A DNA stretch of 64,000 bases from NCBI RefSeq assembly GCF_056746865.1, contig NZ_CM163382.1. One strand, 5' to 3'. Under the pieces are notes generated by a model that worked only from the letters and a program-made list of their open reading frames with translations, was not told the DNA's origin and made no database searches. A program made the translations under genes and the position numbers. Of this stretch, positions 4,436-26,122 are shown piece after piece; position 1 is the stretch's first letter, and each line of letters begins with the position of its first letter.

Positions 4436-5314
4436 CTACAGATGTTGCTCTCTGGTTGTTGTACTAGTCGGGAGATCCTGTGGATCGACATTTTCCTTCG
4501 CGTGAGCATTGATGCTGGAAGCGGTAAACGTCAGGATGAATACAACCGTGAATAAGATAACAATCGTTGGTGCTGGTGCGCTGTCTATAAAAAAGGAGAG
4601 CCATACACCAGTCATTGAGACCATTACCGATATACCGAGCGCCAGCAGGAGCGCAATATGAAAGCGTTGCGTCAGGAGTACCGCAATGGCGCCAGGCGCA
4701 ATGAGCAGAGAAATGGAGAGAATGATACCTACCGCTTTCAGCGTCGCCACAATGGTCAGAGAGACCATGCACAGCAGCCCATAATGCAGCCATCTCGTAT
4801 GCAAACCGCTTACCTGCGCCTGTTGATAATCAAAGCTGAACAGCAAAAAATCCCGCCATTTTACGCTAATAACAAGTGTAACCAGCCCGGCAATAATCAC
4901 CGTCTGGATTATATCGCCGATGGTTACCCCGAGCATGTCGCCGAAAAGAATATGGTCAAGATGTACGTCGGGTTTGACTGCAATATACAAGATCAGACCT
5001 GCGGCAAACATGCCAGAAAAAACAATCCCCATCACTGTATCTTGCTTGATTCGGCTGTTGTCTTTCAGGTATCCCGTCGCCACCGCGCAGAATACTCCGG
5101 CGACGAATGCTCCTCCCGCCAGAGGAAAACCCAGTATCCACGCAAGCACGATACCAGGAAAAACCGCATGACTCATCGCGTCTCCCATCAGTGCCCAACC
5201 TTTCAGGACCAGAAAGACCGACAGCAGCGCACAGGGTATGGAAACTACCAGTGAAATCAGCAGTGCGTGACTCATAAAGGTGAACTGCAGTGGCTCCAGT
5301 AATAATGCCATCAT
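4436..5314 (-). CDS. sitD: Iron/manganese ABC transporter permease SitD
   Basis: 292-aa polytopic membrane protein; last gene of four-gene operon with overlapping stop/start codons. Confidence 0.85.
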   Translation of the reverse strand: MMALLLEPLQFTFMSHALLISLVVSIPCALLSVFLVLKGWALMGDAMSHAVFPGIVLAWILGFPLAGGAFVAGVFCAVATGYLKDNSRIKQDTVMGIVFSGMFAAGLILYIAVKPDVHLDHILFGDMLGVTIGDIIQTVIIAGLVTLVISVKWRDFLLFSFDYQQAQVSGLHTRWLHYGLLCMVSLTIVATLKAVGIILSISLLIAPGAIAVLLTQRFHIALLLALGISVMVSMTGVWLSFFIDSAPAPTIVILFTVVFILTFTASSINAHAKENVDPQDLPTSTTTREQHL

Positions 5315-6168
5315 GAGCGATCCTCCAGCACCTTATGCGCACGCTGACGATTTGCCAAAAGCCCATGGGTGGGTGCAAAGACAAATGCTAAAAGAAACAG
5401 CAGTGTCTGCGCCACCACGATGATTCCACCTGTCGCTCCGTCCAGAAAGTAACTGACCCACGCGCCGAGGAAACTGGTTACACTGCCAATAGTTACAGCA
5501 ATCACGAGCAGGCGGGGAAAACGATCGGTTAACAACCATGCTGTTGCGCCAGGGGTCACTACCAGACAGATCACCAGAAAAGCCCCAACCGTTTGCAATG
5601 CTGCAACGGTCGATACCGCCAGCAGTGTGAAGAAGAGGATTTTTAATCTTCCTGGATATAATCCAATAGCACGGGCGTGATTTTCGTCGAAAAAGGTCAC
5701 CATAAGATCTTTCCATTTGAAAAAGAGCACTATGACTGAGACAATGCCAATGATAGTGAGTTGCAGGATATCCGCCGGAGCGATTGCCAGAATATTGCCC
5801 AGGACGATGGTCTGAATATTTACGGATGTCGGGTTTAATGACACCATAAACAGCCCCAGGCCAAAAAAGGACGAGAAGATCAGGCCGATGATGGCATCTT
5901 CTTTTAAGCGAGTGCGTTGGTTAAGAAACAGCATGCTGCCCGCAGCCAGTCCACCGGAAAAGAAGGCCCCCAGAGAAAACGGAAGCCCCAGCATATATGC
6001 CCCCGCAACACCCGGGACGATAGAGTGCGACAGCGCATCGCCAATCAGCGACCAGCCTTTTAGCATCAGATAGCATGACAGGAAAGCGCAGAGACCGCCG
6101 ACCATCGCCGCGACCCACATCGCATTGAGCATATATTCATAGCTGAAGGGTTCCAGTAGCACGTTCAT
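5311..6168 (-). CDS. sitC: Iron/manganese ABC transporter permease SitC
   Basis: 285-aa hydrophobic permease; 4-bp overlap with sitD and sitB. Confidence 0.85.
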
Positions 6169-6992
6169 CTTTCTTCCCTCTGCACCGCTGATGGTCGATA
6201 AGCCACAAAGGGGCGTTCATCGTCAGTAATAATGCTTTCTTCCGAGCCTTTAAGTGTGACATGGCGTAGTACGCCGCTAAAAGCCAGCTCCAGGTTCTCG
6301 GCTGTAAAAGTGGTGTCTGTCGGCCCGCTTGCCAGGACGGTGCCTTTGACCATGACCGTATAATCGCAAAATGTCGTGACGGATCCGAGATTGTGCGTTG
6401 AGACAAGCATCGTTTTGCCTTCCGCGCGTAACTCCCTCAACAGGCTGATGATTTTGGCTTCGGTTTTCACATCAACGCCGGTAAAAGGTTCATCCAGCAG
6501 GATCACATCACCCTGCTGTGCAATCGCTCTCGCCAGAAAGACGCGTTTCTTTTGTCCACCGGAAAGCTCGCCGATTTGTCGATGGCGAAAATCTACCATA
6601 TCGACACGTTCCAGCGCATCGGTGACAACCTGACGATCCCTCTTATTGGCTATACGCAACATACCCATATGCCCATAGCGGCCCATCATCACCACATCTT
6701 CCACCAGTACAGGAAAGGACCAGTCCACTTCTTCTGACTGCGGGACGTAGGCAATCAGGTTTTTCTGCAGAGCCTGCCGCGTGGGAATACCCAGAACAGA
6801 TATCTTTCCGGTAGTCAGACGCACGAATCCCATAATCGCTTTAAATAACGTCGATTTTCCGGAACCGTTTACCCCAACCAGAGCGGCAATAGATCCGCCT
6901 GGTACTGTGAAGGATGCATCGCGCAGTGCTGTGTGCCCGTTACGCCAGGTGACAGTAACGCCATTAACGACAATACCCGCAGATTGCATCAT
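6165..6992 (-). CDS. sitB: Iron/manganese ABC transporter ATP-binding protein SitB
   Basis: Walker [10 protein letters not shown] and ABC signature LSGGQKKR in translation. Confidence 0.9.
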
Positions 6993-7906
6993 TACTTCTC
7001 CCTTTTCCCGGCTTTAATTCCCTGCACCAGCGTACTGGTAGTAACCTTCAGAAGGTCGATATACGTAGGTACCGGGCCGTTTTCTGTGCTCAGGGAATCG
7101 ACATAGAGCACACCGCCGTAGTGTGCGCCGGTTTCACGCGCAACCTGACGCGCTGGTTTATCGGAAACCGTACTCTCACTAAATACCGCTGGGATATTAT
7201 TTTTCTTCACTATATCAACCACTTTACGTACCTGCTGGGGTGTTCCTTGTTGATCGGCATTTATCGGCCACAGATAAAGCTCTTTTAGCCCCAAATCGCG
7301 TGCGAGATAAGAAAAAGCCCCTTCACTGGTGACCATCCATCTTTTATTCTCAGGGAGTTCAGCAATCTGCTTACGCAGGGGGGCAAGGGTTTGGGTAATC
7401 TTGGCTTTATAAGTATCGGCATTACGTTGGTATGTTTTTGCATTTGCCGGATCGTATTTTATCAACGCATCACGAATATTATCGACGTAAATCAAAGCAT
7501 TATCTGGTGACATCCAGGCATGAGGGTTAGGTTTTCCCTCGTAGGGGCCTTCGGTGATCCCTACTGGCGTCACACCCGAAGAGACAATCACTTCTGGAAC
7601 ACCATTGAGATGCTGGTAAAAGCGCTGGAACCACAATTCCAGATTCATTCCATTGGCGAGAATCAGTTGTGCCCCCTGCGCACGTTTAATATCGCCAGGG
7701 GTAGGCTGATACTCATGAATTTCCGCACCGGGCTTGGTTATGGATGAGACTTCTGCAACATCTCCAGCCACGTTTTTGGCCATATCTGCGATGATGGTAA
7801 ATGTTGTAATGACCTTGAATTTTTCAGTTGCACTCGCCTGAAATGCGATCGAGCAGGTGAGGGCGAGGAACCCCAAGAGCATGGTTAATTTTTTTATTGA
7901 GTGCAT
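6992..7906 (-). CDS. sitA: Periplasmic metal-binding protein SitA
   Basis: 304 aa with N-terminal signal peptide; first gene of operon; start overlaps sitB. Confidence 0.85.
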
Positions 7907-8140: not shown

Positions 8141-9287
8141 ATGAAGGGTAAAATTGTCTGCTGTGGAGCCTCTCAGATTTCCGGCATCATAGTGCCCAAT
8201 ACGGGATGCAAAAGCGCCCTCAGACTGGCGACTCCACAAATGAAATATACACCGGTTGGCGTTGATATCGCAAAGTATCTGATTCAGGTTCACTTCATCA
8301 ATGAGTACACGGGCGAAGTGGTGGACAAGCAGCTACGTAGCAAGGATTTTCTGACGTTCTTCAGCAACCGGGAACCCTGTCTGATAGGTATGGAGGCTTG
8401 TGGAGGCTCCCAACATTGGGCGAGGGAACTGGAAAAAACTGGGACACAAAGTTCGGCTGTTGCAAGCTCGCTTCGTTAAAGCATTCGTCATGGGCAACAA
8501 AAATGATGTGATGGATGCGCGTGCTATCTGGATGGCGGTACAGCAGCCCAGTAAAGATATCGCTGTTAAAACGGAAGAGAAGCAGTCAGTTCTGGTCCTG
8601 CACCGTTCGCGCAGACAACTGGTGAAGTTCAGAACCTCGCATATTAATACCCTTGGCACGCTCCTCGAGTTTGGTGAAATCCTCCACAAAGATTGGACAG
8701 CGATGGACAGAAAGCTACCGACAGCCCTAGAGCGAATGAAGACGAACCTGCCGCCGTATCTCATCACTGTGCTTGAATACCAGTACAACAGACTGAGTGA
8801 GCTGGGCATGCAGATAGATGGCCTTGATAAACAGATTAACAGCGTGGCACGGCAGAGCGAAAACTGTAAGCGCCTAATGGAAATCCCCGGTGTGGGGCCG
8901 TTAATCGCTACGGCGGTGGTCGCCACCATGGGCGAGGCCTCAGCATTTAAATCCGGACGTGAGTTTGACGCTTATGTCTGTCTGGTGCCGAAGCAGACGG
9001 GGTCCGCTGGGAAGGTTCGCATGCTGGGGATAAGCAAACGTGGGGATACCTACCACCGGACATTATTTATCCATGGGGCAAGGGCGGCAGCATTGCTTAC
9101 CAAAGAACCCGGCCCATGGATCACGGAGCTGAAAAAACGGCAGCCGACAGGTGTAATGCCGATCAGTTTAGGAGCAGTTGACCGATCCAGGGTCTGTTTA
9201 AGAATCCTGAAACGCTCACTCGTTTCCGGATTTTTGTGCACAGAAAAACCCCAGCTAGGCTGGGGGCCGGAAAGCTTTCAGCTTTGA
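8141..9287 (+). pseudogene. IS110-family transposase, frameshifted
   Basis: ORFs 8141-8479 and 8400-9287 overlap in different frames; N-terminal GVDIAK/MEACG and C-terminal IPGVGP/GISKRG motifs. Confidence 0.6.
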
Positions 9288-9325
9288 GCCAGTTATTAAA
9301 ACCCCTTTTGATTTGTTAAAACACC

Positions 9326-9616
9326 TTGCGGTCTGGCAACTGCAAGTGTCAAACAAGAAATCAAAAGGGGGTCCCAATGGGGAACGAAAAGAGCTTAGCG
9401 CATACCCGATGGAACTGTAAATATCACATAGTTTTTGCGCCAAAATACCGAAGAAAAGTGTTCTACAGAGAGAAGCGTAAAGCAACAGGCAGTATTTTGA
9501 GAAAGCTGTGTGAGTGGAAAAGTGTACGGATTCTTGAAGCTGAGTGCTGTGCAGATCATATCCATATGCTTGTGGAGATCCCGCCCAAAATGAGCGTATC
9601 CGGCTTTATGGGATAG
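9326..9616 (+). pseudogene. IS200-family TnpA, 3'-truncated
   Basis: MGNEKSLAHTRWNCKYHIVFAPKYRR...HIHMLVEIPPKMSVSGFMG matches IS200 TnpA; left-end hairpin cccttttgatttgtt/aacaagaaatcaaaaggggg upstream; ORF cut short at 9616. Confidence 0.65.
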
Positions 9617-10347
9617 ACGGCATTAATCGCTTCCGGGAAGCCTTTCAGGCCGTCCACGAAGGCGATAAGGATATCGTTCAGGCCGCGATTTTTCAGTTCC
9701 GTCAGTACATTCAGCCAGAACTTTGCACCTTCATTTTCGGCCAGCCACATATCCAGCAGCTCTTTCTGACCGTCGGTATTGATGCCCAGCGCGAGGAACA
9801 CCGCTTTGTTAATGACACTCCCGCTGTGACGAACCTTAACCACAATACAGTCAAGATAAACAATGGGATACAGTGCATCCAACGGTCGGTTTTGCCATTC
9901 AGAGACCTGTTCTTTAACCGCATCGGTCACTTTGGATATCAGCGTGGGCGAGACATCGGCGTCGTACATTTCTTTGAAGGCTGAGGTAATTTCGCGGGTA
10001 GTCATCCCTCTGGCATACAGCGCCAGGATCTGGTTGTCCATGCCGGTAATGCGGGTCTGATTTTTCTTCACCAGTTGTGGTTCGAAGGAACCATCACGAT
10101 CAGGTGGAGTACGTAATTCCATCGGCCCGTCGGTAGTGGTGACGGTTTTCGTGGAATAGCCATTACGGAAGTTGGTTCCCGATTTGGTCTGATTTTTTTC
10201 ATGTCCCAGATGGTGAGTCAGTTCAGCGTTGAGAGCTGCCTCAACACTTATTTTCTTGAGCAGGCGATCGAACTGACTGAGATCTTCAGGGGTTTTGAGA
10301 TTTTTGGCCAGTTCGTTAGCCAGAGCCTGCAATTGTGTGTCGTCCAT
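9556..10347 (-). pseudogene. IS256-family transposase, C-terminally truncated
   Basis: 263-aa ORF with IS256-like N-terminus (LNAELTHHLGHEKNQ, VYLDCIVVKVR); abuts the truncated IS200 piece. Confidence 0.6.
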
Positions 10348-11267
10348 AATTTAGCTTTCATTTGATGTTGAATTGAACAGATCAAAATCAGGCAATTACA
10401 TAAATCTATGTACAGGCTCAATGCCGGCGCTGGTATTGTAGAAATCAATCCTGCCCCTGATGTCGGAGATACTCTCGTTAACCTTCCTGATTGTATCCTC
10501 TGCTCAGTCAATGGGTTGCCAATGGGGGCACCCTTTCCTGACTGATTCGTCATTTCATTCTTATTGTATGTTACTGGCATTACACCAGTGCTGGCATACT
10601 TTCCTGCGTGTCTGCACCGGTTTGACAAAATTCAACAGGGATAAAATAGTGCAGGAAACTGAAGCATTACTTGCAGAGCCGGGAGACATCCGGCGTTTTA
10701 TTCAACAGGCAGTGGATCACTGGCCGCATTTTCTGATTGTCCACTTCACACACAATTCGACAGAAGGAAACATCAACGGACAACAGATTCATGCATTCTG
10801 AACTTCCTTTTATGAACGTATTACTGAACGTAATCACACTGACAGTCCATCCTCGCCGGTGGTATTACGCTGGTTGCGTGAACAACATGAAGGAACAACA
10901 ATACCTGTTGCTGCTCAGCCATGTGGTGGCATGCAGCGGCACTTTAAGCAGCACAGGGCACTTTGAACTGCTCCGGGAATCCTGGAGACTAAACTCCCTG
11001 AGAAAGAGGTAAACAGGATGAGTATGATTCACAATTGGGGTAATTTGTTCCATTGCCTCAAATGCTGGCTGTACGCCACAGACTCTGCGTGTCTGGGTTA
11101 GCCAGTATGAGCGGGATACAGGGGCGCTTCACACATAACATTCCTTCTAATTTGCATAATTAATTACACTGATAGTCACATTCAATAACTATCATAAGCT
11201 ATCATCTGGCTGACTGTTATTTCGCAACAGTTATTGAGTAAATCTTTAACCTGTTAACAGAGGGTTT

Positions 11268-11792
11268 ATGAAACGTAAACTTATTGCCTTTGTGATTCTG
11301 GCTACATCATCCTGTGGATATGCAGCCACCAAAGATGTAACAATGAATCTTGTTGATAGTGACGGAAAAGAGCGAAATATTGGTAAAATAACCATCCAGA
11401 AGACACCCTACGGGCTGCTGTTCACCCCTGATCTTCACTCCTTACCCGCCGGCATTCATGGTTTTCATGTACATGAAAACGCAAGTTGTGCTCCTGCCCT
11501 GAAAGATGGAAAAACTGTCGCTGCTTTATCTGCAGGTGGTCACTTTGACCCGGAAAAAACAGGGAAGCATCTCGGTCCATGGTCTCCTGATGGCCACCTA
11601 GGTGATCTCCCTGCGCTTTATGTCACTCATGACGGAAAAGCAACCTACCCGGTGCTTGCGCCAAGACTATCTGAATTAAAGGAGCTCGATGGCCGTTCGC
11701 TAATGCTCCACGCAGGAGGTGATAATCATGATGACCATCCTGAACCTCTAGGTGGCGGTGGTGCAAGAATTGCCTGTGGTATCATCCCATAA
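11268..11792 (+). CDS. sodC: Periplasmic Cu/Zn superoxide dismutase, acquired paralogue
   Basis: 174 aa with signal peptide, copper-site histidines (HGFHVHE, GGHFDPE) and C-terminal [12 protein letters not shown]; diverged from chromosomal SodC as recalled. Confidence 0.8.
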
Positions 11793-12959: not shown

Positions 12960-13777
<818 letters not shown>

Positions 13778-14116
13778 TAATTACACTGTGGGTTGACGCC
13801 GGAAGAATCAGAGAACAGATACCGTTCTTACTGTAAAACGTGGCTAATATTAATTGAGCACTGCAGTGTTCAGAGCACAAAGAAGAAAAAAGATGTGTGC
13901 GAATGCCTGTAATGTGTTAAAAGAATGTTCCGCGTTTCCGGTACGCTTTTCGTAACTAACAATGCAGGGTGACGTAACGCTGGTTGTGCCGGAAACGCGT
14001 CCCTCCCCCTATCTTTCCTGTTTGGATTTGCCCCTATATTTCTGGATTATCCGACAAAACCGGCGTGAAGTATTACTCTCGTCGCCCAGCACCATAAGGA
14101 TAACGCCCATAAAATC

Positions 14117-14482
14117 ATGAAACTTTTCTTCCAGATTGGATACAATCAGGCCGTATCCCGTATTACAGGCTTATCACGTGTGACAGTCAGTCTCTGGGTG
14201 TGTTCAGGAACATTCCCTGAAATGTCAACCCGGCCTCCAGAGCGAGGACTTCTGGCCCCATGGAGGGAGTGGTTAAAAGAGCAACGAGAAAGTGGTAACT
14301 TCGGCGCGTGGCTGCAAGGATGGCAGCTGATGCTGCGGCTATATGTGAGGCAATCGGCAGTCGCTGGAATAATGGGGGTTGTCGAAAGTCATGTAAATAG
14401 ACTAAAAATGCTGAAAGGCCAGATGTATGGTCGAGCCGGATTTGAACTACTCAGACAGAGGGTCATGAGTCCACTGGCATGA
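14117..14482 (+). CDS. Hypothetical protein with possible AlpA-like helix-turn-helix
   Basis: 121-aa ORF containing ITGLSRVTVSLW...FPE; weak resemblance only. Confidence 0.2.
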   Translation: MKLFFQIGYNQAVSRITGLSRVTVSLWVCSGTFPEMSTRPPERGLLAPWREWLKEQRESGNFGAWLQGWQLMLRLYVRQSAVAGIMGVVESHVNRLKMLKGQMYGRAGFELLRQRVMSPLA

Positions 14483-14690
14483 AAATCTCCATCCAGGTTG
14501 CGTAAGAGCCACTTTTCATCCGTCGTCGATATCTGGGATAGCCATAGTGAAATAAAAAGCTGTCTGAATTAAATTATTTTGCACATATATTTTAATCCTG
14601 CACTGAATTAAGAATGGGTAATCAGTGACTGCTTGGACGGTCACTTTTAAGAGAAGGCATTAACAGAGAATGGTAAACAGGCTCAATATA

Positions 14691-15143
14691 TTATGTTGTT
14701 GGCACTACAGATGAATGATGGGATGATATTTTCCAATCCTTTCCATCCCACTCATAAGCGAAACTATAGCGTGCTGAAACTTGTTTTTTATCTTCAAAAG
14801 TAAACGTGTAATTCCCTGTATCAAGAGCCATATTGCATCCAATGCGAATAGTTCTGAAGTTTATTTCTCCAACAGGTTTTTTTTTCAAAAAATGCTCAAA
14901 ATAGTCAACTCTTTCTGCATCTGTAATCCTAATTTTTTTTGATACTGTGGGCAGTAAGATCGCATCACTTAAATAGTTATCAGCAACCTTCTTGGCATCA
15001 CCTGTTTTTAATGATTCATTCCAGCGATCGAATAACCTTTCAATGTCTTTACTATCTACCCGAATACACTTAACATTATCTACGTCACTTGCCCACGACG
15101 CTCCAGAAAACAGACACAGAATTAAAATATTTATTTTTTTCAT
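14691..15143 (-). CDS. Secreted hypothetical protein, possibly NTF2/SnoaL-like fold
   Basis: 150 aa with clear signal peptide (MKKINILILCLFSGASWA); AT-rich codon usage; fold guess from size and composition only. Confidence 0.45.
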   Translation of the reverse strand: MKKINILILCLFSGASWASDVDNVKCIRVDSKDIERLFDRWNESLKTGDAKKVADNYLSDAILLPTVSKKIRITDAERVDYFEHFLKKKPVGEINFRTIRIGCNMALDTGNYTFTFEDKKQVSARYSFAYEWDGKDWKISSHHSSVVPTT

Positions 15144-15317
15144 AACTCCTCCTGATCAGCCTGAAACTTTTTTAAAGTTTAATCATATTAATACAGTGCA
15201 ACTATTTGATAGTAAAAACGATGTTCTCTATTTTGTTAATAGATACTTCCTATTGTGTATATATTATGAGATTATTAAGAATAATACTCTCTGGGTCGTA
15301 GAGACAGGGTATAAGTC

Positions 15318-15760
15318 ACAGGCTGGTGTGGTTCGGATGTTCTTGCCCCCTCAATATCAGACTGCTATTGTATCTTAAGTTAACGTTATCCGCTGACGTC
15401 GATATTCCCGTGGTGAGAGATAACCTAACGCACTATGCGGATGGTTTTCATTGTAATGCTCGAACGCCTCTGCAAGGTTATGCAATGCCGTTATTACATT
15501 CAGTTTCGGCATGAACGCGATGTAGTCTTCATTCACGTTTTCACGAACCTTTCTGCCATTCTATTGCTCTGAGGGCTACTGACTGCCGTCGTGCAGGGCT
15601 CCAGATTCAACTCTCTGGCGAATTGCCGTGTTTCATGAGCCGTATAAGCCGAACCGTTATCCGTCCGCCACTGGATTGCTCGTTCCGGTCCTTTATCGCC
15701 AAAGCGTTTTTCTATCGCTCCTAACATCACATCCTGCACTGTCGGCTTTATCGTAACCTC
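15318..15760 (-). pseudogene. IS2-like (IS3 family) orfB C-terminal fragment with right inverted repeat
   Basis: [15 protein letters not shown]...[19 protein letters not shown]...[26 protein letters not shown] parallels IS2 OrfB; in-frame stop; terminal repeat ttaagatacaatagcagtctgatattgagggggcaag is IS2-IRR-like. Confidence 0.5.
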
Positions 15761-15789
15761 CCGTACTGGTCACGGGCAGACTGTTCATC

Positions 15790-16503
15790 ATGTTAAACCC
15801 AGCCGCTGTCAGATCATGCACCGGCCGGATGGCGGGCTGACCTGCCCCGCCGCGCTGCTGCCCGCCAATCCATTTCTTACCTTCCTTCCCGGTGGCCTGA
15901 CGTCCGGCCTCGTCCCCTTTCACCGCATCACCGTCACCGCTGTTCACCACCTTCTTGTACTCTTCCAGCATCGCTGGCCTGCGTCCATTTGCTGCGATCA
16001 GAAAAGTCCATCATCCGTTTTGCCATGTTCTGGCAGTTCAGTTACGCCTTGTCGAAAGCCACATTCGCCTGCAGCACACCGTTGGTGATCATGTCGTACA
16101 GGCCGGGGTTGGCACGCTGTATCACCATCGCCGGCAGACTGGCAGCGGCGCCGGTCGCCCCCTAAATCACATCCCCCATCAGATTTTTAAAGCCGTCGGT
16201 CAATCCGTTAAGATGATTACCCACCGTGGTCTTCAGGTCAAAGTTGCCGCACATCAGATCGCTGCTCCAGCCCAGGTCCATACCCAGCTTCTGCATGTTG
16301 CTGCGCGTGGCCAACTGTGAGATCACCGAGCCGCCACCCAGCGTATAGAACAGTTTGTCGGATACGGCGCCATCCACGGATTTCCCGTAACCGAACGTGC
16401 TGTCATTCAGTTTCGGCAGGGAAAGAAGATCAGCCATCGCCGGAATACTGCAGTACAGCATCACACTCAGTGCCACCATACCTGTTTTCATCTTCATCAT
16501 CAT
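15790..16503 (-). pseudogene. TraH-like conjugative transfer protein, disrupted
   Basis: ORF 16162-16503 has signal peptide and TraH-like N-terminus; reading continues in other frames to about 15790 with stops. Confidence 0.35.
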
Positions 16504-16509
16504 GGTTCC

Positions 16510-18365
16510 TTAAAAATTCGTACTGCCAAGGAATCGCTGCCCGCGCTTTTCGAAGCAGCTGTAAGGCTGCCACAGTGCAAAGGCTGCATTACCGTTCTCC
16601 GCCGCCTGGTGTTCACCATCCGGGAAAACGGCACAGGAACGCGACACTGACGGCGTCAGTCGCTGCCATTTGTGATTGCGGGTGCCGGTGTTTTCCTCCA
16701 CCGCCTCCGGGGGCCAGTAGCCGTCACGTTTCACGCCCTTAACCTCCCTGTAGACATGCGACTCCCCCATCCGCGTGATAATGTCGGCCACCCGCTGAGC
16801 CCCCACCGCCGCGGCCCGGTCATCATCGCTCTGCATCACAAAACCACTCCGGTGATAAACGCTCCCCCACATGTTTTTATCGGCCTAGCTGCCAATCTCG
16901 CGTTTGCCGGGAACCTGTGCCTCTGGATACAGGGATTCAGGTAATCCCGTTCGCTAGACGATGCTGTCCAGGGTACTGAGGAAATAGGCCATGGCCGGTG
17001 TCACCGGTGAATCACAGCTGAATCCGGGTACCATCCCGCCGATAAGCTGTGTGGCCGGATGACCCAGCGCATCTGCATATTTGAAACGAATTGCTGAACG
17101 GCGCTTCCCCTGTATTTTCATATCCGCCGGATTTCCCCCGCCGGCACTCAGCCCGGACAGGCCGTCAGTGATGGCATTCTCCGGGCCACCTGCGGTCCGG
17201 CTGACCAGCGACATCTCTTTCCAGGGATTACCACCCGGTGCCGTATAGGTGGAAATAACCACTTCCGGGATGAAATGTGTCACCTTCACGGAAATTCTGA
17301 CCGTACAGCCAGACGCGCTGCAGTAAAGCCAGTAACAAATCCCGCTGACACGCCAGCTGATATAGTCCGGTGCCGCAGTACTGGCGATAATGCTGGCGGT
17401 GTTCAGTGATACAGACGCCAGGGGCAGTGATGCCACACTCAGTAACAGCACGCCGGTACGCAGACGACATTTCAGGGACATCATGGCTGCACTCCTCCCT
17501 CAGCACGGATTTTCCCGGCCATCACCACATCCATGGTGCCGTAAACCACCTCACTGTCATCAAACACCACGGCAGGGTATTTCTTCACGCCCAGCGACTA
17601 GGCATGTGCCACATCGCGGTAATGACCGGCCAGTTCCGCCTGCATCGTCTGCCATTCGGGAGACTTCATACGTACCCTGACCACCGATTCAGCCTCACCC
17701 GCATCAGCAGGCAACAGGCCCCAAAAGCGGCTCTGAAGCTGCTCAGGCGCATCCAGCAGAACCACCCTGACACCATCAGGAGGATTAACGGGAAGATGCT
17801 GAGAATCGGTATAAATTGTTGTGCCGGCAGACGCTGCCAGCGGCAGGAAAAACAGGGAACAGAAAATCCGGTACATCGTACACCTCAGTCAGATATTATC
17901 TGACTGACAGCGTGCGAAGAAAGCGCTCATTTATCAGCAATAAATTAAAAACGGGATTAAAAAATTACGGTGGGATCCGGGGAAGTGTATCTGCCAAGCA
18001 TAACAGACAGTCTGTGATTATACCCGGCCTTTCACAAAGCCGGGGAACTGATTCATACCAAGTGGTGATTTTCAACAATAAGTATAATGAGGTTGTCCCG
18101 GCACCGGTGGCAGTGGTTCGAGATAGACGTCATCAACAAAAACACAGGGGAATTTTTCAACTGCACATCCAGCACGCTCAGACATTACCTTCAGACTGAT
18201 ACCATGTTTCTCAGCATCAATAAAGAGGACATCTGCCCCTGTTTCATCCCGGAGATTTGTCGCATGATGCATGATCCGGTGTACTGAAGGACATGTTTTG
18301 TAACCAAAAACACATATACGCATGTTGCACCTCCTGATCACTGGTTGACGCCGATAATAAAACAA
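16510..18365 (-). pseudogene. Degraded conjugation-module remnants (TraU-like, signal-peptide protein, glutaredoxin-like protein)
   Basis: Co-directional short ORFs 16510-16872, 16954-17484 (CxxxxC motif ICYWLYCS), 17598-17876, 18072-18365 (CPSV glutaredoxin-like), separated by in-frame stops. Confidence 0.3.
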
Positions 18366-18809
18366 TAATGTGAGCGTAAAAAATGCACCTCATACCACAT
18401 TTCTGTAAAAGGCTCTGGCTATCACTGCAAAAAGCAAAATCTTAATTCCAGCATCACTTGTTACTCTCATTCCGTCACTTATATTTACCCACATGGCGAT
18501 GTATTTAATTACTGCCCATAAGAATAAAAGCCGCTGGCGGATTATTTCTTTATTACCCGGATGCGGTCACAAGCCCACACATCGTCAACTACCTGCCGGT
18601 AATATTAACTGTCAGAAGAACGCATACATCCGGATGTTTACAGAGTCGCGCGCCTGGTCACAGGTGACAACAGAAGTATGCCATACTAAAGGAGTAAACG
18701 GCGGGTCACTGGTGATCAAACACCTGCATCGTGTGTTGCTGCCACTGCCCTCAGGTGACAGAGGCAGCATCTTTACGTATTATAATGCGTTATATCGGGT
18801 TTGTTGTTA

Positions 18810-20897
18810 TCAGAACTGATAGTTCAGCGACATCCAGTAATTTCTCTCAGGTATCACATAACCCGTTGTCGATGCCCCCGTCTGGAAGTAATCACCCGCA
18901 TAAAGCGTACCACTGCCGGCACGATACAGACTTACGTCACTGTAATCCTTGTTAAGCACATTATTCACCGCTGCATTCAGCATCAGTGCATCCGTCACTT
19001 TCCACGACATGCCCGCATCCAGTACCGTCCAGGCTTTCAGATATTCACCTTTCTCATCATACACTTTCTTCTGTACAGCTGAGAGTGACGAATAATTCTG
19101 GGTGAAACGTGGCGTTTTCCCGCGGTAACGGGCACCCAGCCATGATGTCACCTCTTCAGTAATCTGCCAGTTCAGTTTCGCATTCACCATATGCTCAGGG
19201 GTGTAACTCAGTGGTGCACCTTTATTATCCCCATCCCGTTGTTCACTCTGCGTCCAGGTATAATTCAGAGACAGAGTCACATCCTCTGACAACAGAGGCA
19301 GTGTGCCGGCAAATTCCACGCCCTGAGTCCTAGCCTTTCCGCTGTTTGTGTAGCTGCGGGTATTATCATCAATGGAATAAGATACGATCTTGTTGGAGAA
19401 TTCTGTCATAAAGCCCGTGATATTGGCGTTCAGACCGGCATGATTATCGTAATACACGCCCGCTTCATAACTGACACTCTCCTCCGGCTTCAGGTCCGGG
19501 TTACCGAGAAGATTCGTACGCCCCTGACCGGACACACCGCTGATCCCCTTATGTAACTGCCCCATGCTGGGCGCCTTATATCCCGTGGTCACCCCACCTT
19601 TCAGCGTCCACGCATCAGTCACATCCCAGACCATATATGCCCGGGGACTGAAGTGTCCTCCGAACACCTCATAGCGTTCATAGCGGCTACCCGCAGTCAG
19701 TGCAAATGCATCCGTGATATACCACTCATCCTCAACAAATGCCGACCAGCTTTTCTGACGGAAGGTTTCACCAGTACTGGCGAGAACAACCCCGTCTTTC
19801 ATGGAGGAGTTCTGATACTCACCACCGACGGTAACCTTGTGTGATTCCCCCAGAGGTGCAAACAGTAATGAGCTCAGGATAAGATTCGACTCCTTAAGCT
19901 CCCTCGGCTGGCCGGCAAGCCCCCATTTATCACGCTGCAGTACGCTACGTACAAGCTGACGGCCTTTATTTTCCGTCTCATTCCAGTTCAGAGATGACTT
20001 CCAGGCTCCGAAGGTGAATGTATGATCATAGCCTGCTGAAATTTTATTACGCTCATAGCGCAGGGTGCGATCATAACCGCCCGTCAGACTGCCCAGCTGG
20101 CCATCTCGGTTATCATAACGCTGCCGGGCGATATCCATATCAATCCAGAGTACATCCTTGTCCGTCGCTTTCCAGTCAAGACGACCACCTGCATTATAAT
20201 TCTGTGATTCCGTGGGATAAGGGATACGCGTAGCTGAGGTGTCGCTCAGTGATGTGACCGATGAGCCCTGACGCTGCTGTGTGCTGCCACGTACCTGAAG
20301 GCTGAGTGAATCATCCACAAGGGGACCGCTGCTCCAGAAATTAAACTGGCTGCTGTTCCCCCATTTGTTACTTTCCTGCAGGTTCAGCCCGGCATTAACC
20401 GAAGAGCGCCATTTGTCTGCATTCTTTTTGGTGATGATATTCACCACGCCCCCCATGGCATCAGAGCCGTACAGAGTGGACATGGGGCCCCTGATAATCT
20501 CAATACGTTCGATGGCGGCCAGAGGTGGCATAAAACCCGTATTCATGGCAGCATAACCGTTTGGGGTTACGTCACTGCTCCCGCCCTGACGGACACCATC
20601 GATCAGTATCAGCGTATAACTGGCAGGCATTCCGCGGATGCTGATTTCGAGCCCACCTGTTTTACCCGTACCGCTTTCAACATCCACCCCCTCTACGGAT
20701 CTCAGTGCCTCCCCCAGATCATGATACTGGCTGGATCGCAAATCCTCCTGGCTGATCACTGAAACACTCGCAGCTGCACTGGTTAATTTTTTTTCATAGC
20801 CAGACGCCGTGACTACCATCACATCTTCCGCAGCCATACTGCTGACTGAAAACCCGAGACAAGGGATGGCTACTGAAGCCAGAGTGGTTACTCGCAT
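18810..20897 (-). CDS. iha: TonB-dependent siderophore receptor/adhesin, Iha-like (IrgA homologue)
   Basis: 695 aa with signal peptide, TonB-box-like EDVMVVTAS, plug plus beta-barrel, C-terminal aromatic residue; size and sequence recalled as Iha. Confidence 0.6.
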   Translation of the reverse strand: MRVTTLASVAIPCLGFSVSSMAAEDVMVVTASGYEKKLTSAAASVSVISQEDLRSSQYHDLGEALRSVEGVDVESGTGKTGGLEISIRGMPASYTLILIDGVRQGGSSDVTPNGYAAMNTGFMPPLAAIERIEIIRGPMSTLYGSDAMGGVVNIITKKNADKWRSSVNAGLNLQESNKWGNSSQFNFWSSGPLVDDSLSLQVRGSTQQRQGSSVTSLSDTSATRIPYPTESQNYNAGGRLDWKATDKDVLWIDMDIARQRYDNRDGQLGSLTGGYDRTLRYERNKISAGYDHTFTFGAWKSSLNWNETENKGRQLVRSVLQRDKWGLAGQPRELKESNLILSSLLFAPLGESHKVTVGGEYQNSSMKDGVVLASTGETFRQKSWSAFVEDEWYITDAFALTAGSRYERYEVFGGHFSPRAYMVWDVTDAWTLKGGVTTGYKAPSMGQLHKGISGVSGQGRTNLLGNPDLKPEESVSYEAGVYYDNHAGLNANITGFMTEFSNKIVSYSIDDNTRSYTNSGKARTQGVEFAGTLPLLSEDVTLSLNYTWTQSEQRDGDNKGAPLSYTPEHMVNAKLNWQITEEVTSWLGARYRGKTPRFTQNYSSLSAVQKKVYDEKGEYLKAWTVLDAGMSWKVTDALMLNAAVNNVLNKDYSDVSLYRAGSGTLYAGDYFQTGASTTGYVIPERNYWMSLNYQF

Positions 20898-20946
20898 ATC
20901 TTCTCTCCGATTATATTAATCAGAGAGAAGATAAACAAACGCAAGA

Positions 20947-20965
20947 GATAATGAGAATGATTTGC
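20947..20965. promoter_or_regulatory. Fur box upstream of the Iha-like receptor gene
   Basis: gataatgagaatgatttgc, strong match to the Fur consensus, about 50 bp upstream of the start. Confidence 0.45.
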
Positions 20966-21209
20966 TTTTGGTTTTTACATAAAAAAGCAAAAAATTACAA
21001 AATATTACATAAGGTTCTACTATACCCCGAATTTCAGTTGAGGACGTTCTTTTCTCTAGGGGAAAGTAACGGATAGCAATCGTTGACGATCCATATCGGA
21101 TTTTTGCACTATGGGTATTTATCCAATCTTTATCAGTTTCTTGTCCTTGGATATGTTAATCATACACTATCGGATATTTCGTACATCAGACAGGTGAATA
21201 TAATTAATA

Positions 21210-21494
21210 ATGAGGAGTTTTATGGACAATAGAACAATTACTCTGCAGGAATTACTCGAGTACATGTCAATGCTTCGAGACGACATGAATGCTCTCACGG
21301 TTGCATTTTCATATCTGGCTTCATCGCTTCCTAAGGAACAGATGATACAAATACTGGCATTCATTCATTTTGAATCAAATAATTCCAGATGGTCTTCAGA
21401 ACAGCAGAAATCTTTCAAATGGCTAGCATCACTACTGGAGGGCTGTTATACAGTTCACACAAACATTTTTGATATACCATCAAAGAACCACTAG
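21210..21494 (+). CDS. Hypothetical small protein in AT-rich DNA
   Basis: 94-aa ORF; no recognisable motif. Confidence 0.2.
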   Translation: MRSFMDNRTITLQELLEYMSMLRDDMNALTVAFSYLASSLPKEQMIQILAFIHFESNNSRWSSEQQKSFKWLASLLEGCYTVHTNIFDIPSKNH

Positions 21495-22158
21495 TACATT
21501 ATGATACATTCCCTCTGAAATATATTTCTACTTTGAGCGCCTCTGACTTTATGAGGCGCTTTGTCCAGCAAACCAAACATACTCGCTGGAAACAGAGTAA
21601 AGTATTATTATCCCCGATACATCTATATTTTACAACAGCGCATCCATATATTAATTAACGATGCAGTTAAGTTCCCCATTCTACCCAATTTACTGTTTTT
21701 GTTGTTTGAAAGAAGACTCTCATTAAGTGAGAGCCATCTGTAAGTATCCCGCATAATCGCTCCATTCATATTTAGAGATCATCCGGAATAATCAATCTGA
21801 TAACGAAGAAAATCGCTATGCGTAAAGCCCGTATTACTGAGTATTAGATCATCGCTGTAATTAAATCGGTTGAAACCGGACGAACAATTAAAGATGTTTG
21901 TCGGGAAGCCGGTATTTCTGAAGCCACTTACTACATCTATTGACTACCTCAGTTTTGCAAGCACTGATTCTGGTTTTGGATTGTTGCTTACATCTATCCG
22001 GCATCAGGAAAACCTGTGCCCAAATAGGGAATCCACACACAATCGCCTCTACAACTGGACGACCTCTGAGGCCAGTACAAAAATCAGGTTCCGATTGTGC
22101 AGGTGCAACCCGTCACCATTTCTCAGTACGCTGCAACTTTTGCTGAAAGAGATTAACT

Positions 22159-22620
22159 TCACACTGCCTGATATTCTGTATCATTTATCAGCATCGACCA
22201 GATTATTCTCGCGTATTTGTTAGCAATCTCCACAGTAGTTTTATTAAATTCGCGACTCTCCTTTAACTGCTTAACCCACTGATTTAGGTATACATCATTA
22301 TTATTCGTAGCAACTCTAACGACAGCACGGACGCCATGAATAAAAAGTGTTTGCAGATGCTTGTCGCCTTTTTTCGTTATATTCATGAGAACTTACCTGC
22401 AGCAACTCTAGTGCAGGCATGGAAGCAGACCAAGCCATGCAGCACAGTGACGATCATTCTTAAATTCAGTGCCTTTGCCAATAATAACAGCAACAACGCT
22501 CGTGACAATTTCAGGACCAATGCCTTTAGCTTTTGCAATACGCTGACAGCATTCAGATTGCCTGGACAGGTCTCTATTTATTTATCAAAAAAGTTTATAC
22601 TACGACCGAGATCGTTAAAG
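22159..22620 (-). pseudogene. IS110-family transposase C-terminal fragment, cut by IS630
   Basis: ORF 22159-22386 (GDKHLQTLFIHGVRAV...ANKYARIIW) plus upstream frame with IAKAKGIGPEIVTSVVA; homology ends at the IS630 boundary. Confidence 0.45.
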
Positions 22621-22628
22621 AGATCATC

Positions 22629-23786
22629 TAAATAGCTGCGCCTAATACCACTACACTTTTGCCAGCCCATGTTTGCCTCCGGGGAACGGGCTGATGGTTT
22701 CCATAAAATGGCGAATTTTTTTCAACAGTTGCCACATTGAGCGGCACTGATGATTACGCGTTATTGTGTCGTGAAGTGCCTGCCATAGCCGTTCAACATG
22801 ATTCACCCATGGCAAGTAAACCGGCTGATAAATGACCCTGAACTTCGGGTTCTCCTTCAACCAGCGCTGTGTTTCCCGGCTTTTGTGGATAATGTAGTTG
22901 TCCACGATCAGTGTGATGGTTTTCACCCGAAGGTATGTCGCTTTAAGCCGCTTCAGCAGGCTGATGAACAGCGCCGAACTTTTGCTGTTGCCGCCCACAT
23001 AGCTGACTTTACCTGTCCCGCTGTGCAGCGCTCCGGCCAGATCATATTTTTCATTCTGTCCCGGCGTGACCACCCGTTTTTGCTGTCCGCGCAGTTGCCA
23101 GTCCGCACCGATTTTGGGATTAAGATGGATATCCACTTCATCTTCATAAAAGACCGGATGCTCTGTGCTGCATTCGTCCAGTGCTTTATGGATTGCTGCC
23201 ATCTTTTCATCTTTATGCGGGTCACGGATACGCAGAGTTGGCGCAGCCCTTCGCCACACAATCCCCGCAGACGGCAACCAGCGGCGAACGGTTCCGGCAT
23301 TTAACTGGCAATCGGTTATCTCATTGATTTTTATTGCCAGCAGTTCTGTACTCCAGCGTGAACGCTGGTAGCCAAAGTCGCCGGGAGAATGTTTTACCAG
23401 CTCACGTAACAGTGTGCAGATATGCTCAAACGACCAGAGACGGGCTCGCCCGGCAGGTAATGATTTCAGTCCCTCAACACCCGACTGCGTGAACCAGTTA
23501 ATCCAACATCCAACAGAGGAACGGGCGCAGCAGAGCGTTCTGGCAACGTCGCTGACACGGTCGCCCCGGTGCAGCATCAGCATGGCAGTCAGTCTGCGGG
23601 CATAATTTTTATCGTGTGTTTTATGGATGGCTTTCTGCATCAGGCGTCGTTCGTCACGGGAAATTGGTGCTATGATCGGCATTGCTCAGTCCGGTTGGTG
23701 ATTTGTTTTGATTTGGCGATTGATCAGATCGCACAATCCAGGCTGAGCTCCCTCAAAGTGATCTACTATTCCGCGCAGCTATTTAG
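22629..23786 (-). mobile_element. IS630 insertion sequence, complete
   Basis: About 1158 bp bounded by inverted repeats taaatagctgcgc/gcgcagctattta; contains intact transposase. Confidence 0.8.
22651..23682 (-). CDS. IS630 transposase
   Basis: 343 aa; near-identical to the recalled IS630 transposase (MPIIAPISRDERRLMQKAIHK...). Confidence 0.85.
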   Translation of the reverse strand: MPIIAPISRDERRLMQKAIHKTHDKNYARRLTAMLMLHRGDRVSDVARTLCCARSSVGCWINWFTQSGVEGLKSLPAGRARLWSFEHICTLLRELVKHSPGDFGYQRSRWSTELLAIKINEITDCQLNAGTVRRWLPSAGIVWRRAAPTLRIRDPHKDEKMAAIHKALDECSTEHPVFYEDEVDIHLNPKIGADWQLRGQQKRVVTPGQNEKYDLAGALHSGTGKVSYVGGNSKSSALFISLLKRLKATYLRVKTITLIVDNYIIHKSRETQRWLKENPKFRVIYQPVYLPWVNHVERLWQALHDTITRNHQCRSMWQLLKKIRHFMETISPFPGGKHGLAKV

Positions 23787-24039
23787 TTCCGCTATCGTTC
23801 TGCACATACAAGCTCTTAACCCGTTTATGCATCCTCAAGGCTCAGCAGAATAGCTGTCAGCGCCAATGATATAAGACAGTAATGGGGATGCGGACGATTT
23901 CCTGGACTCTCAGGAGATGAAACATGTTTACTGAAGAAGAAAAAATCCGCGCCATTGAGCTTTATTTCAAATATGTGACCCGTCCTGAATAGCGTTGACA
24001 CGTTCCTACTTAAATCCGGAGAACGTAATGATGACTTAG

Positions 24040-25260
24040 CTCAAACGCACCCAACGTGATTATCCTCTATCCTTTAAAATAGCTGTTGTTGAGCAGGTTG
24101 AAAAAGGCGAGATGACTTATAAACAGGCCCAGCAGCGGTATGGCATTCAGGGGCGCTCCACCGTTCTTGTCTGGTTACGTAAATATCCTGGACTTCCTGA
24201 GCTGGTGAAGAGGAAACTGCCTGTGACTCAGACAACTATCCCGCTCACACCCGAGCAAAGAATCAGGGAACTTGAAACGTAGCTTGAGCTGGCGAACCAG
24301 AAAGCTACGTTTTTTGAGTCAGTTATCAATGTCCTGAAAAATGATTACGGGGTGAGTATCGTAAAAAGCGGCCCGGCAAGTCCTCGCGCAAAGTCCGGTC
24401 CCCAAAATAACTGTGACGCGTGCAGTCTGTTCCTGGGACACAGCAGACAGGCATGGTATCAGGACAATGCAAGGCGCAGAAAACGGCAGGAACATCATGC
24501 TCAGGTTCTTGATTTTGTTGCCCGTGTCAGATGTCGTCAGCCCCGAATCGGTGCGCGTAAGCTGCACTATCTGCTGAACACTCAGGCCGATAAAAGGCTG
24601 AATATCGGGCGAGACCGCCTGTTTAACCTGCCCGATGAATACCGACTCCTGGTGCCAGTAAAACGGTCATATCACAAAACTACCAACAGCCATCATCGCT
24701 TCTACCGACATCCAAACCTGCTTAAACCAGGCCCTGAACAGGTTACTGCTCTTGAACCAGAACAGGTCCGGGTCGCCGATATTACTTACCTTCCACTGCG
24801 CAATAGTTCGGCCTATCTGAGTCTGGTCACCGATGCCTGCTCCAGAAAAATTATGGGCTACCATGTTGGGGAAAACCTGCAGACAGAAAATGTGGTAAAA
24901 GCGTTCAGACAGGTGCTGAAGCTGAGAAAAACGACGAGTCCCCTGGTGCATCATTCTGGCAGGGGCTGCAATACTGTTCAGCGCTCTATCAGTCAGTTCA
25001 TGAAAGAAATGAAATAACCTGTTCAATGACTGATGGTTATGACTGCTACCAGCATTGGCTGAGTGAATAAATGGTACCCTGAAAAATGAGTTTTTACTCT
25101 CGCGTCCTGCAGACCTGGCTCAGGCCCGGGAAATGGTCCAAGAGTCCGTGGCAATTTATAACCATGAGCGGCCACACCTGGCTCTGAAATACAAAACGCC
25201 CTATGACGTTCATCAGGCGTTTTACAGACAGAAAAGTGTCAACTTATACCAAGACTAGTC
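24040..25260 (+). pseudogene. IS3-family transposase orfA/orfB, multiple stops and frameshifts
   Basis: OrfA-like helix-turn-helix (YPLSFKIAVVEQVEKG) with in-frame TAG; orfB 24352-25017 with DDE core; C-terminal piece to about 25260. Confidence 0.5.
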
Positions 25261-25485
25261 AATGGTAAGAAGCTGGCTCCCGTCGTACGCGAACTGGGCT
25301 ACCCTTCGAAAAGAAATCTGCGGCGTTGGATCCGTTCATAGGAATCAGGTGGCGGAGCAAAAGAATCCATTCGCCATAAGCCCCGTTACACAGATGAGCA
25401 AAAACAAGTTGCCGTTGAACATTATCTTAACCACGGCTGCTGCCTAGCGTTTACCAGTAGAACTCTGGGTTATCCCTGTACCGAT

Positions 25486-25878
25486 GTGCTCGCTCGCTGG
25501 GTTAATGAACGTTACCCCGGCAGACGACGTATATTTACCAGTAAGACCAGTCCGGTTGCGCCCTTTGAACCAGAAGTCAAACGTCAGGCTGTCATGGCAT
25601 TCTGTACACGACAAATATCAGCCAGTGAAATCTCTAGGCGTATTGGTGTCAGTCGTGCGGTATTGTATAAATGGAAAGATGAAATTATCGGCAACAGTGC
25701 TTACCAGACTATGCGTAAACATAACGAACCTTCCCTAGAGGCAGAACGCGATGCGTTGCGGGAGGAAGTCGCCCGACTGAATCAGGAAATACGCCGCCGG
25801 CAGATGGAACTGGATATTCTGAAAAAAGCGGAGAAAATCATAAAAAATCTATGGTCACCCCCGTTTTTGCTACACTGA
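25486..25878 (+). pseudogene. IS3-family OrfA-like fragment
   Basis: FEPEVKRQAVMAF...leucine-zipper...LKKAEKI typical of IS3-family OrfA; no orfB follows. Confidence 0.4.
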
Positions 25879-26122
25879 TTTTTGATTAATGGTGGGCTTG
25901 CTTAAATCTATCCGGCGTCTCTGTGGACAAGGAGACCCGCGCCTCGATGAGTTCCGCACCTGATAATCCTAAAAAGACCCTCGGCTTCAGTGAGCCATTT
26001 TTTCTGTCAGGTTTTTAATCAGGTCTATTTGCCGTTCATGTCATCAATAATCAGTCTTCGCAAAACCAGACAGGTAACTTGTATCGTAAGCGTGCAGCAA
26101 GAACCGTATTGACGGGGATGTG

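Follow-up and report, generated by a model that had tools for sequence, protein, structure and literature searches.

Decayed transfer genes of an MPF_G-type integrative and conjugative element beside an intact iha gene

Three transfer pseudogenes and an intact iha gene

The 64,000 nucleotides of DNA analysed here, from NCBI RefSeq assembly GCF_056746865.1, contig NZ_CM163382.1 (hereafter the window), contain at positions 15761–21011 a 5.25-kb block derived from an integrative and conjugative element (ICE). The left part of the block consists of three adjacent, co-directional pseudogenes on the minus strand, which correspond to the tfc24-tfc23-tfc22 trio of transfer systems of mating-pair formation class G (MPF_G) and keep the family order seen in intact ICEs and in a published gene table (PMC7067208). 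Its right part carries iha which, together with about 114 bp of upstream sequence, is the only intact component. An original prediction, made from the letters alone, had described an eroded conjugative-transfer module composed of five co-directional minus-strand fragments and lying between an IS2-like fragment and an Iha-like gene. The open reading frame (ORF) listing and three-frame translation bore out the five fragments, at 15693–15971, 16162–16503, 16510–16872, 16954–17484 and 17598–17876, and gave a separate minus-strand ORF at 18072–18365. The module was identified as conjugative through the NCBIfam models TIGR03755, TIGR03756 and TIGR03757 (E values from 6e-17 to 2e-47), and the flanking features are indeed a transposase fragment matching model NF006918, on the left, and a protein named Iha by RefSeq, on the right.

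None of the three transfer genes retains an intact reading frame. They were reconstructed, as the original prediction had proposed, by aligning positions 15761–17956 with the intact genes of the ICE of Escherichia coli APEC 102026, which located five nonsense codons, one frameshift and one 3' truncation. The TIGR03755 pseudogene (15761–16503; Tfc22 of MPF_G systems and orf55476 of ICEclc) was recognised by NCBIfam (E 6e-22 at 15693–15971 and 2e-23 at 16162–16503) and by tblastn, in which the intact APEC 102026 protein aligns at residues 9–176 (93%) and 174–261 (82%). Only about the first 247 of its 472 codons are left, the 3' truncation lying where an insertion sequence (IS) fragment begins, and they carry a TAG stop at Q113 (16162–16164), a TAA stop at Q153 (16042–16044) and a 1-bp insertion, causing a +1 frameshift, at 15975.

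The TIGR03756 pseudogene (16510–17484; TraU-like, Tfc23, and IceU of ICEclc) is full-length and is interrupted by TAG stops at W177 (16954–16956) and Q200 (16885–16887). Its fragments match the NCBIfam model with E values of 5e-46 (16510–16872) and 2e-47 (16954–17484) and Pfam TraU (PF06834) with E values of 6e-20 and 3e-16, which substantiates the TraU-like feature noticed earlier, and residues 1–324 of the APEC 102026 protein align at 93.5% in tblastn. Also full-length is the TIGR03757 pseudogene (17481–17876; DUF1525, thioredoxin-like, Tfc24), with a single TAG stop at W93 (17598–17600); it was detected at 17598–17876 by NCBIfam (E 6e-17) and Pfam DUF1525 (E 1e-13), and by tblastn over residues 1–131 of the APEC 102026 protein (88%). 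The stops that had been reported near 16880, 16955 and 17590 are the TAG codons at Q200, W177 and W93, respectively. RefSeq already treats the loci as pseudogenes, under the label 'TIGR03756/TIGR03757 family integrating conjugative element protein, internal stop'.

The left junction of the block is exact at 15760/61: in blastn comparisons the ICE homology starts at 15761 and IS2-like sequence lies beyond. This neighbour (15375–15760, minus strand) is a C-terminal fragment, itself frameshifted, of an IS2-like transposase OrfB of the IS3 family, and it marks the left break-point of the relic. Positions 15375–15739 code for residues ~172–289 of the 301 of IS2-like OrfB (InsD), and NF006918, 'IS2 transposase TnpB', matches with E values of 4e-24 and 2e-19; on the identical block of LS45, RefSeq annotates the fragment as 'integrase core domain-containing protein, frameshifted, missing N-terminus'. 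The right break-point is at 21011, where the ICE homology stops in blastn and which is equivalent to position 24851 of the APEC 102026 stretch. The pieces of the block are distinct, since their G+C contents differ: 55–60% in the transfer genes, ~44% in the spacer that follows them, ~51% in iha and 35–45% in the flanks. Rfam detected no RNA family within 14500–22000, and promoter and terminator scans yielded hits at chance level only.

The iha gene (18810–20897, minus strand) encodes a TonB-dependent receptor/adhesin of 695 amino acids. Its reading frame is uninterrupted and matches the Pfam Plug (E 2.5e-27) and TonB-dependent beta-barrel (E 6e-65) domains, RefSeq names the identical protein WP_001266790.1 Iha, and the amino acid identity to Iha of the APEC 102026 ICE is 95% (tblastn). 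The region upstream from it, at 20898–21011 on the same strand, was kept from the ICE cargo unit and ends at the blastn end-point. A search with the Fur-box consensus allowing up to three mismatches found no site there; a Fur-box-like 19-mer at 20947–20965, with 14 of 19 consensus matches and five mismatches, may be considered a putative Fur box. To judge from the sequence, iha with its own upstream region would be what persists as a function at this locus, and the gene is presumably still expressed and Fur-regulated.

Intact relatives and the cargo slot

Positions 15745–18400 have matches in 116 of 5426 complete E. coli genomes, in a total of 133 places which are all chromosomal, with none on plasmids. 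Fifty-nine of these genomes match at at least 99% and carry the relic, and about 26 match at 90–99% and are annotated with the three genes free of pseudogene qualifiers. The ICE of APEC 102026 is 95.0% identical to the window over 15761–17956 and 93.3% identical over 18737–21011 (blastn). It carries, on one strand and in this order, a conjugative ATPase, a small hypothetical gene, iha, TIGR03757, TIGR03756, TIGR03755, a hypothetical gene and TraG_N, and the same order from the ATPase to TraG_N, again on one strand, occurs in the ICEs of E. coli FDN-4 and 2013C-3033. The APEC 102026 ATPase, of VirB4 type, scores 1401 bits on TIGR03744, and the annotation of the element includes the full TIGR037xx/PFL_47xx set with TraD, TraG_N, PilL, ParA/ParB and dnaB-PI, as well as STY4528/STY4534, topoisomerase III and a type IVb pil operon with a shufflon. 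It appears to be a complete ICE and belongs to the SPI-7/PAPI-1/pKLC102/ICEclc family, placed in MPF_G by Guglielmini et al. (PMC4027160).

Since gene order and the level of identity (93–95%) match those of intact ICEs, the pseudogenes and iha form one inherited block and are no chance neighbours. The original prediction of an ICE relic therefore holds, with intact E. coli elements matching at 95% and carrying iha in the same place and orientation, and its suggestion that the module may have delivered the adjacent gene is supported by the synteny shared with iha-bearing ICEs. It could be argued that IS shuffling placed the transfer genes beside iha by chance and that they are unrelated to its arrival, given that the island is a mosaic of IS-bounded modules and that the segment 17957–18736, between TIGR03757 and iha, is not common to intact ICEs. 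However, the order, the orientation and the junction at 17956–17967 recur in intact ICEs of two lineages, and both flanks of the unshared segment match the same ICE at 93–95%, such that a chance adjacency is very improbable.

Very little of the element is left. When 66 proteins of the APEC 102026 ICE were tested by tblastn against the 64-kb window, 62 had no match, the only matches being TIGR03755, TIGR03756, TIGR03757 and Iha. The VirB4-type ATPase TIGR03744, TraD, TraG_N, pilins and core-complex genes were among those without a match, and no other ICE pieces were found in the window by blastn and tblastn. The window thus holds a fragment derived from the MPF_G family and no member system.

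The last ~90 bp of ICE backbone in this part of the block (17877–17967) are intergenic, upstream from TIGR03757, and form the left edge of a cargo slot. The backbone alignment ends at 17956 with APEC 102026 and at 17967 with S19-651 and 2013C-3033, an equivalent backbone position in all three, and in the intact elements the slot is bordered by the VirB4-type ATPase and a small tfc17-like gene on one side and by tfc24 (TIGR03757) on the other. The S19-651 ICE has no cargo there, and 265 bp separate its small gene from TIGR03757; the 2013C-3033 ICE, with a backbone ~80% identical to the window, again has iha in the slot; a DUF1187 gene occupies it in the MS1494 and RM8082 ICEs, accompanied in MS1494 by one further hypothetical gene; and the slot of ICEclc is taken up by dsbA-like and radC genes, which are non-essential (PMC10018362). 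Because its content varies between elements, the slot is a recurrent cargo site within the transfer operon. A direct repeat of about 100 bp, derived from the 3' end of the upstream tfc17-like gene, flanks the iha unit of APEC 102026 on both sides, at 22468–22564 and 24870–24968 of its stretch (77 bp at 91%), a pattern that single-crossover insertion of a circular intermediate would leave; the window is without the left copy.

The spacer between the left edge of the slot and iha is a segment of about 780 bp (17968–18736, or 17957–18736 in comparison with APEC 102026), with ~44% G+C and, by blastn and composition, no ICE backbone, which replaces 385 bp of the intact ICE. It is complete only in the relic genomes (the 59 at at least 99%, by distant blastn), and no counterpart was found, as DNA or protein, in the intact ICEs examined, which included APEC 102026, S19-651 and 2013C-3033. 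Within it lies the separate minus-strand ORF, an intact glutaredoxin-fold frame of 83 amino acids from an ATG at 18323 (18072–18323); the mechanical ORF extends to a TTG at 18365, giving 97 amino acids, and the ATG is the most likely start. The NCBIfam model GrxA (NF008401) matches residues 15–80 of the longer version with E 6e-8, at 32.7 bits against a curated cutoff of 84 bits, and PDB entry 1EGO, E. coli glutaredoxin 1, matches residues 1–68 of the 83 with E 6e-4. Database homologues number 13; none has a name, and those with a stated species all come from E. coli. One of these, also of 83 amino acids and 70% identical, is encoded in an unrelated non-ICE island of CFSAN061770 next to the sit operon, and it shares with the window ORF an active-site motif CPSV in place of CPYC.

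The ORF is probably a small real gene, and its likeness to glutaredoxin would be a resemblance, with no equivalog membership. The original prediction had counted a glutaredoxin-like protein among the components of the transfer module. Both the ORF and its resemblance to GrxA are real, but it is no part of the transfer machinery, because the segment that carries it is absent from the intact ICEs examined.

The correct labels for the three pseudogenes are TIGR03755/Tfc22, TIGR03756/Tfc23 (TraU-like) and TIGR03757/Tfc24 (DUF1525), and the designation 'TraF/TraH' is wrong. The intact relative of the TIGR03756 pseudogene matches Pfam TraU with E 1.4e-54, a match that does not separate the MPF classes, because TraU-type proteins are common to MPF_G and to MPF_F, the class of the F-type plasmids; components of TraU, TraW and TraH type are homologous between the two (PMC4027160). 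Pfam TraH (PF06122) gave no hit with the window fragments, with the intact TIGR03755 protein or with 46 diverse family members. Profile-profile comparison of TIGR03755 with TraH of the F plasmid gave weak, collinear signals, one with E 0.24 and another with a probability of 8% and E 0.0044 over 55 columns (residues 80–139 against 80–137), using a TraH profile that is shallow in that the homologues gathered are all at least 78% identical. An AlphaFold2 model of the TIGR03755 protein, with a predicted local distance difference test score of 75, retrieved nothing informative from the PDB.

A link to TraH does exist through the literature. The order reported for MPF_G systems, virB4-tfc17-tfc24(DUF1525)-tfc23-tfc22-tfc18-tfc19(TraG_N) (PMC7067208), agrees with that observed here, which equates TIGR03755 with Tfc22, and Guglielmini et al. 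2014 found Tfc22 to be the sole TraH homologue outside the MPF_F or F-type systems (PMC4027160). The 'TraH-like' feature of the original prediction is therefore defensible as a remote homology via this equivalence, although it receives no direct hidden Markov model (HMM) hit.

The same prediction had left the choice between an ICE and a plasmid origin, and only the former has survived. A remnant of a chromosomally integrated F-type (MPF_F) plasmid region, with TraH, TraU and TraF, would account for the Pfam TraU match of the middle gene and could appeal to the components that the two classes share (PMC4027160). Against it, the best models are the ICE-specific TIGR03755, TIGR03756 and TIGR03757, the TraH model is silent, and intact relatives have TIGR037xx ICE genes next to the trio and not the F-type TraC, TraN, TraF, TraW or TrbC. 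Moreover, 133 of 133 places in E. coli are chromosomal and the 95%-identical relative is an ICE with the TIGR03744 ATPase, ParA and dnaB-PI, located at pheV. We consider an F-type plasmid origin to be as good as ruled out by the ICE-specific models, the chromosomal places and this relative.

Decay and origin of the block

Over positions 15761–17956 the window differs from the APEC 102026 genes at 110 of 2196 positions. With two more distantly related ICEs as outgroups to polarise the changes, the window lineage received 12 synonymous, 11 nonsynonymous and 5 stop changes, and the intact lineage 12, 5 and 0, respectively. All five stops arose by G:C>A:T transitions, four of them producing TAG, and the spectrum of the window lineage is AT-biased, with 31 GC>AT against 13 AT>GC changes, which fits drift once function had been lost. 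The decay was stepwise, because LH50-c carries the same relic yet has kept CAG at codon 113 (equivalent to window position 16164) and so has one stop fewer, and FDN-4 harbours an otherwise intact-type ICE with an IS21 in TIGR03755 (3461–5768 of the FDN-4 stretch); these two represent intermediate stages.

Deletion of the TraU-like or the TIGR03755 gene of ICEclc abolishes transfer, and its DUF1525 gene contributes about 4-fold (PMC10018362). As the homologues of these essential genes are disrupted here and every partner gene is gone, the three transfer genes cannot function. One might imagine that the broken genes are still used, either through amber suppression or as split N- and C-terminal products that have acquired a new function in the periplasm, since four of the five stops are TAG, neither TIGR03756 nor TIGR03757 is frameshifted and the block is conserved at at least 99% in 59 genomes. 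This strains belief, however: there is no VirB4, coupling protein, TraG_N, pilin or core complex to act as the essential partners, TIGR03755 is both frameshifted and truncated, the five stops are the changes that mutation bias predicts in DNA of 58% G+C, and the high conservation reflects recent common descent rather than selection, with one stop fewer in the LH50-c copy. On the sequence evidence the relic would be non-functional, with no biological role of its own, and its value is historical.

The insertion site of the intact relative provides a clue to the history of the block. At one end of the APEC 102026 ICE the NCBI Prokaryotic Genome Annotation Pipeline places a 'tRNA-Ser' (18217–18294 of its stretch) that ARAGORN does not recognise. 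The feature is a hybrid whose 3' 52 nucleotides are identical to pheV, and it is followed by a P4-type integrase, the one that adjoins pheV in LS45. With a duplicated 3' end of pheV and this P4-type integrase at its end, the ICE is located at pheV; the hybrid is attR, and the element, inserted in pheV, forms a tandem with the resident island. In LS45 an identical 13-kb block that includes the relic (window 13123–26085) lies inside the pheV island; LS45 annotation was applied to the window within this interval alone.

We consider, with a probability of roughly 0.9, that the block is the leftover of an MPF_G ICE that brought iha and was subsequently trimmed by IS elements while its transfer genes decayed. 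An iha-bearing, pheV-targeting element of this family would have arrived by conjugation at pheV, after which IS activity would have deleted everything downstream from about codon 247 of TIGR03755, at the IS2-like junction 15760/61, and everything upstream from the iha promoter, at the junction 21011. The three stranded transfer genes would then have drifted, accumulating five G:C>A:T nonsense mutations and one frameshift, and iha would have retained its intact frame and its own upstream region as surviving cargo.

Several observations weigh against such a history. No ICE att site, integrase, relaxase, coupling protein or ATPase was found in the window by tblastn and, as no other ICE gene remains, it is deduced and not seen that a complete ICE once stood here. 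The chromosomal location of the window itself is likewise inferred, because it contains no tRNA gene and its arrangement resembles that of LS45 only within 13123–26085, differing outside this interval. The donor ICE must also have differed from those sampled, given that the 780-bp segment has no intact-ICE counterpart. Finally, the surplus of nonsynonymous and stop changes in the relic lineage falls short of significance when taken alone and constitutes a trend only (Fisher p = 0.12).

Some of these points would suit a different course of events, in which the block was never part of an ICE resident here and a fragment was moved or copied, by IS or homologous recombination, from an ICE elsewhere or in a donor. 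Both ends of the block are IS-associated break-points, the window holds no other ICE gene, and the surrounding island is a dense IS mosaic with its blocks arranged otherwise in other strains. Nevertheless, such ICEs integrate at pheV beside the resident island and LS45 has the identical block in its pheV island, and we regard the import of a fragment as rather unlikely. The tandem use of pheV by the ICE and the position of the LS45 block make decay in place the simpler account, although the data discriminate weakly between the two; we infer both the order of events and the decay in place.

The iha gene of the window is 85.7% identical at the nucleotide level to the canonical iha of CFT073 and EDL933 and belongs to a separate, minority lineage, present at at least 99% identity in 59 of the complete E. 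coli genomes and at 90–95% in 20, against ~1536 genomes with the canonical allele (~86%). The canonical loci themselves show some affinity to ICEs. Those of CFT073 (4940–7400 of its stretch) and EDL933 are collinear with the iha of the 2013C-3033 ICE (9274–11733) over 2462 bp at 94.4%, and this stretch reaches ~73 bp past the junction with the iha-less sister ICE S19-651. An 86-bp part of it, upstream, matches S19-651 (9218–9303 of its stretch) at ~75% and is absent from more distant ICEs. In addition, two ICE backbones that are ~80% identical carry, at the same junction, iha alleles that are ~85% identical.

The junction shared by two backbones, the 2462-bp collinearity and the 86 bp retained in an iha-less sister are compatible with the tfc17-tfc24 slot being the ancestral home of iha, in which case the canonical island loci, found in ~28% of complete E. 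coli genomes, would be IS-trimmed ICE fragments. This proposal is tentative and commands somewhat less than even credence. From this comparison the common iha of islands may in turn be a piece of an ICE, with transfer conceivable in either direction. Literature searches, which did not reach the ICEEc2 paper, turned up no account of iha within the transfer operon of an ICE.

This ICE family, its transfer genes and the decay of such elements into islands are already well known, and the feature described here is an ordinary relic. Its interest lies in tying one iha lineage to a still-circulating, pheV-targeting ICE family, of which apparently complete copies occur in avian and human E. coli, and it would provide a concrete route for iha into pheV islands, through conjugative delivery, tandem integration at pheV and IS trimming that spares selected cargo. 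The region illustrates island formation through ICE decay. Annotation of such loci should leave the glutaredoxin-like ORF out of the transfer module.

The surrounding island and known systems

Just left of the IS2-like fragment, in DNA of 35% G+C, positions 14691–15143 encode an intact SgcJ/EcaC-family (SnoaL-like) protein of 150 amino acids with a signal-peptide-like N-terminus; the gene is frameshifted in LH50-c. The rest of the window, including 35–1846, 4436–7906 and 43359–44600, is a virulence mosaic riddled with IS elements. The window start truncates an iutA/RhtA-type siderophore receptor, and the mosaic also includes a cluster of four genes for a sit-type Mn/Fe ABC transporter, of which the substrate-binding gene at 6992–7906 was the one scanned, a group II intron reverse transcriptase and copies of IS66, IS21, IS256 and IS630. 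At 31984–33243, surrounded by IS elements and outside the chromosomal setting of amiC, the island carries an AmiC paralogue (N-acetylmuramoyl-L-alanine amidase, 793 bits on the AmiC model). The first 25 kb of the window are collinear with none of the complete E. coli genomes in the collection.

With the F plasmid the block has in common a TIGR03756 gene that matches Pfam TraU and a Tfc22 that is a reported TraH homologue (PMC4027160), but it belongs to another MPF class, it derives from a system that is chromosomal and not plasmid-borne, and it lacks a direct TraH HMM hit. The small ORF of the spacer has a thioredoxin-fold similarity to E. coli GrxA that spans its 83 amino acids, and differs in having CPSV in place of the CPYC dithiol, in its far lower score and in its restriction to a few E. 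coli islands. The canonical iha loci (TAI/OI-43/48 of O157:H7, PAI-CFT073-pheV and the LAA module) share the gene family, their match covering the gene and ~90 bp upstream, but there IS elements adjoin iha and ICE transfer genes are absent.

The closest likeness is to the MPF_G ICEs themselves, a family that also takes in PAGI-2 and ICEHin1056. The window shares with them the tfc24-tfc23-tfc22 trio in family order and orientation, at 95% nucleotide identity to the E. coli members at pheV, and differs in keeping only three of more than 40 backbone genes, all inactivated, and in lacking any integrase, relaxase, coupling protein, ATPase or att site. An E. coli member of the family that uses pheV/pheU, as cited in PMC11537424, is ICEEc2 (Roche et al. 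2010). In ICEclc the counterparts orf57827 (DUF1525), orf56883 (iceU, TraU-like) and orf55476 (TIGR03755) follow the VirB4 gene in equal order (PMC10018362); unlike those of the window they are functional, and the dsbA-like and radC genes occupy the slot where the E. coli ICEs have iha.

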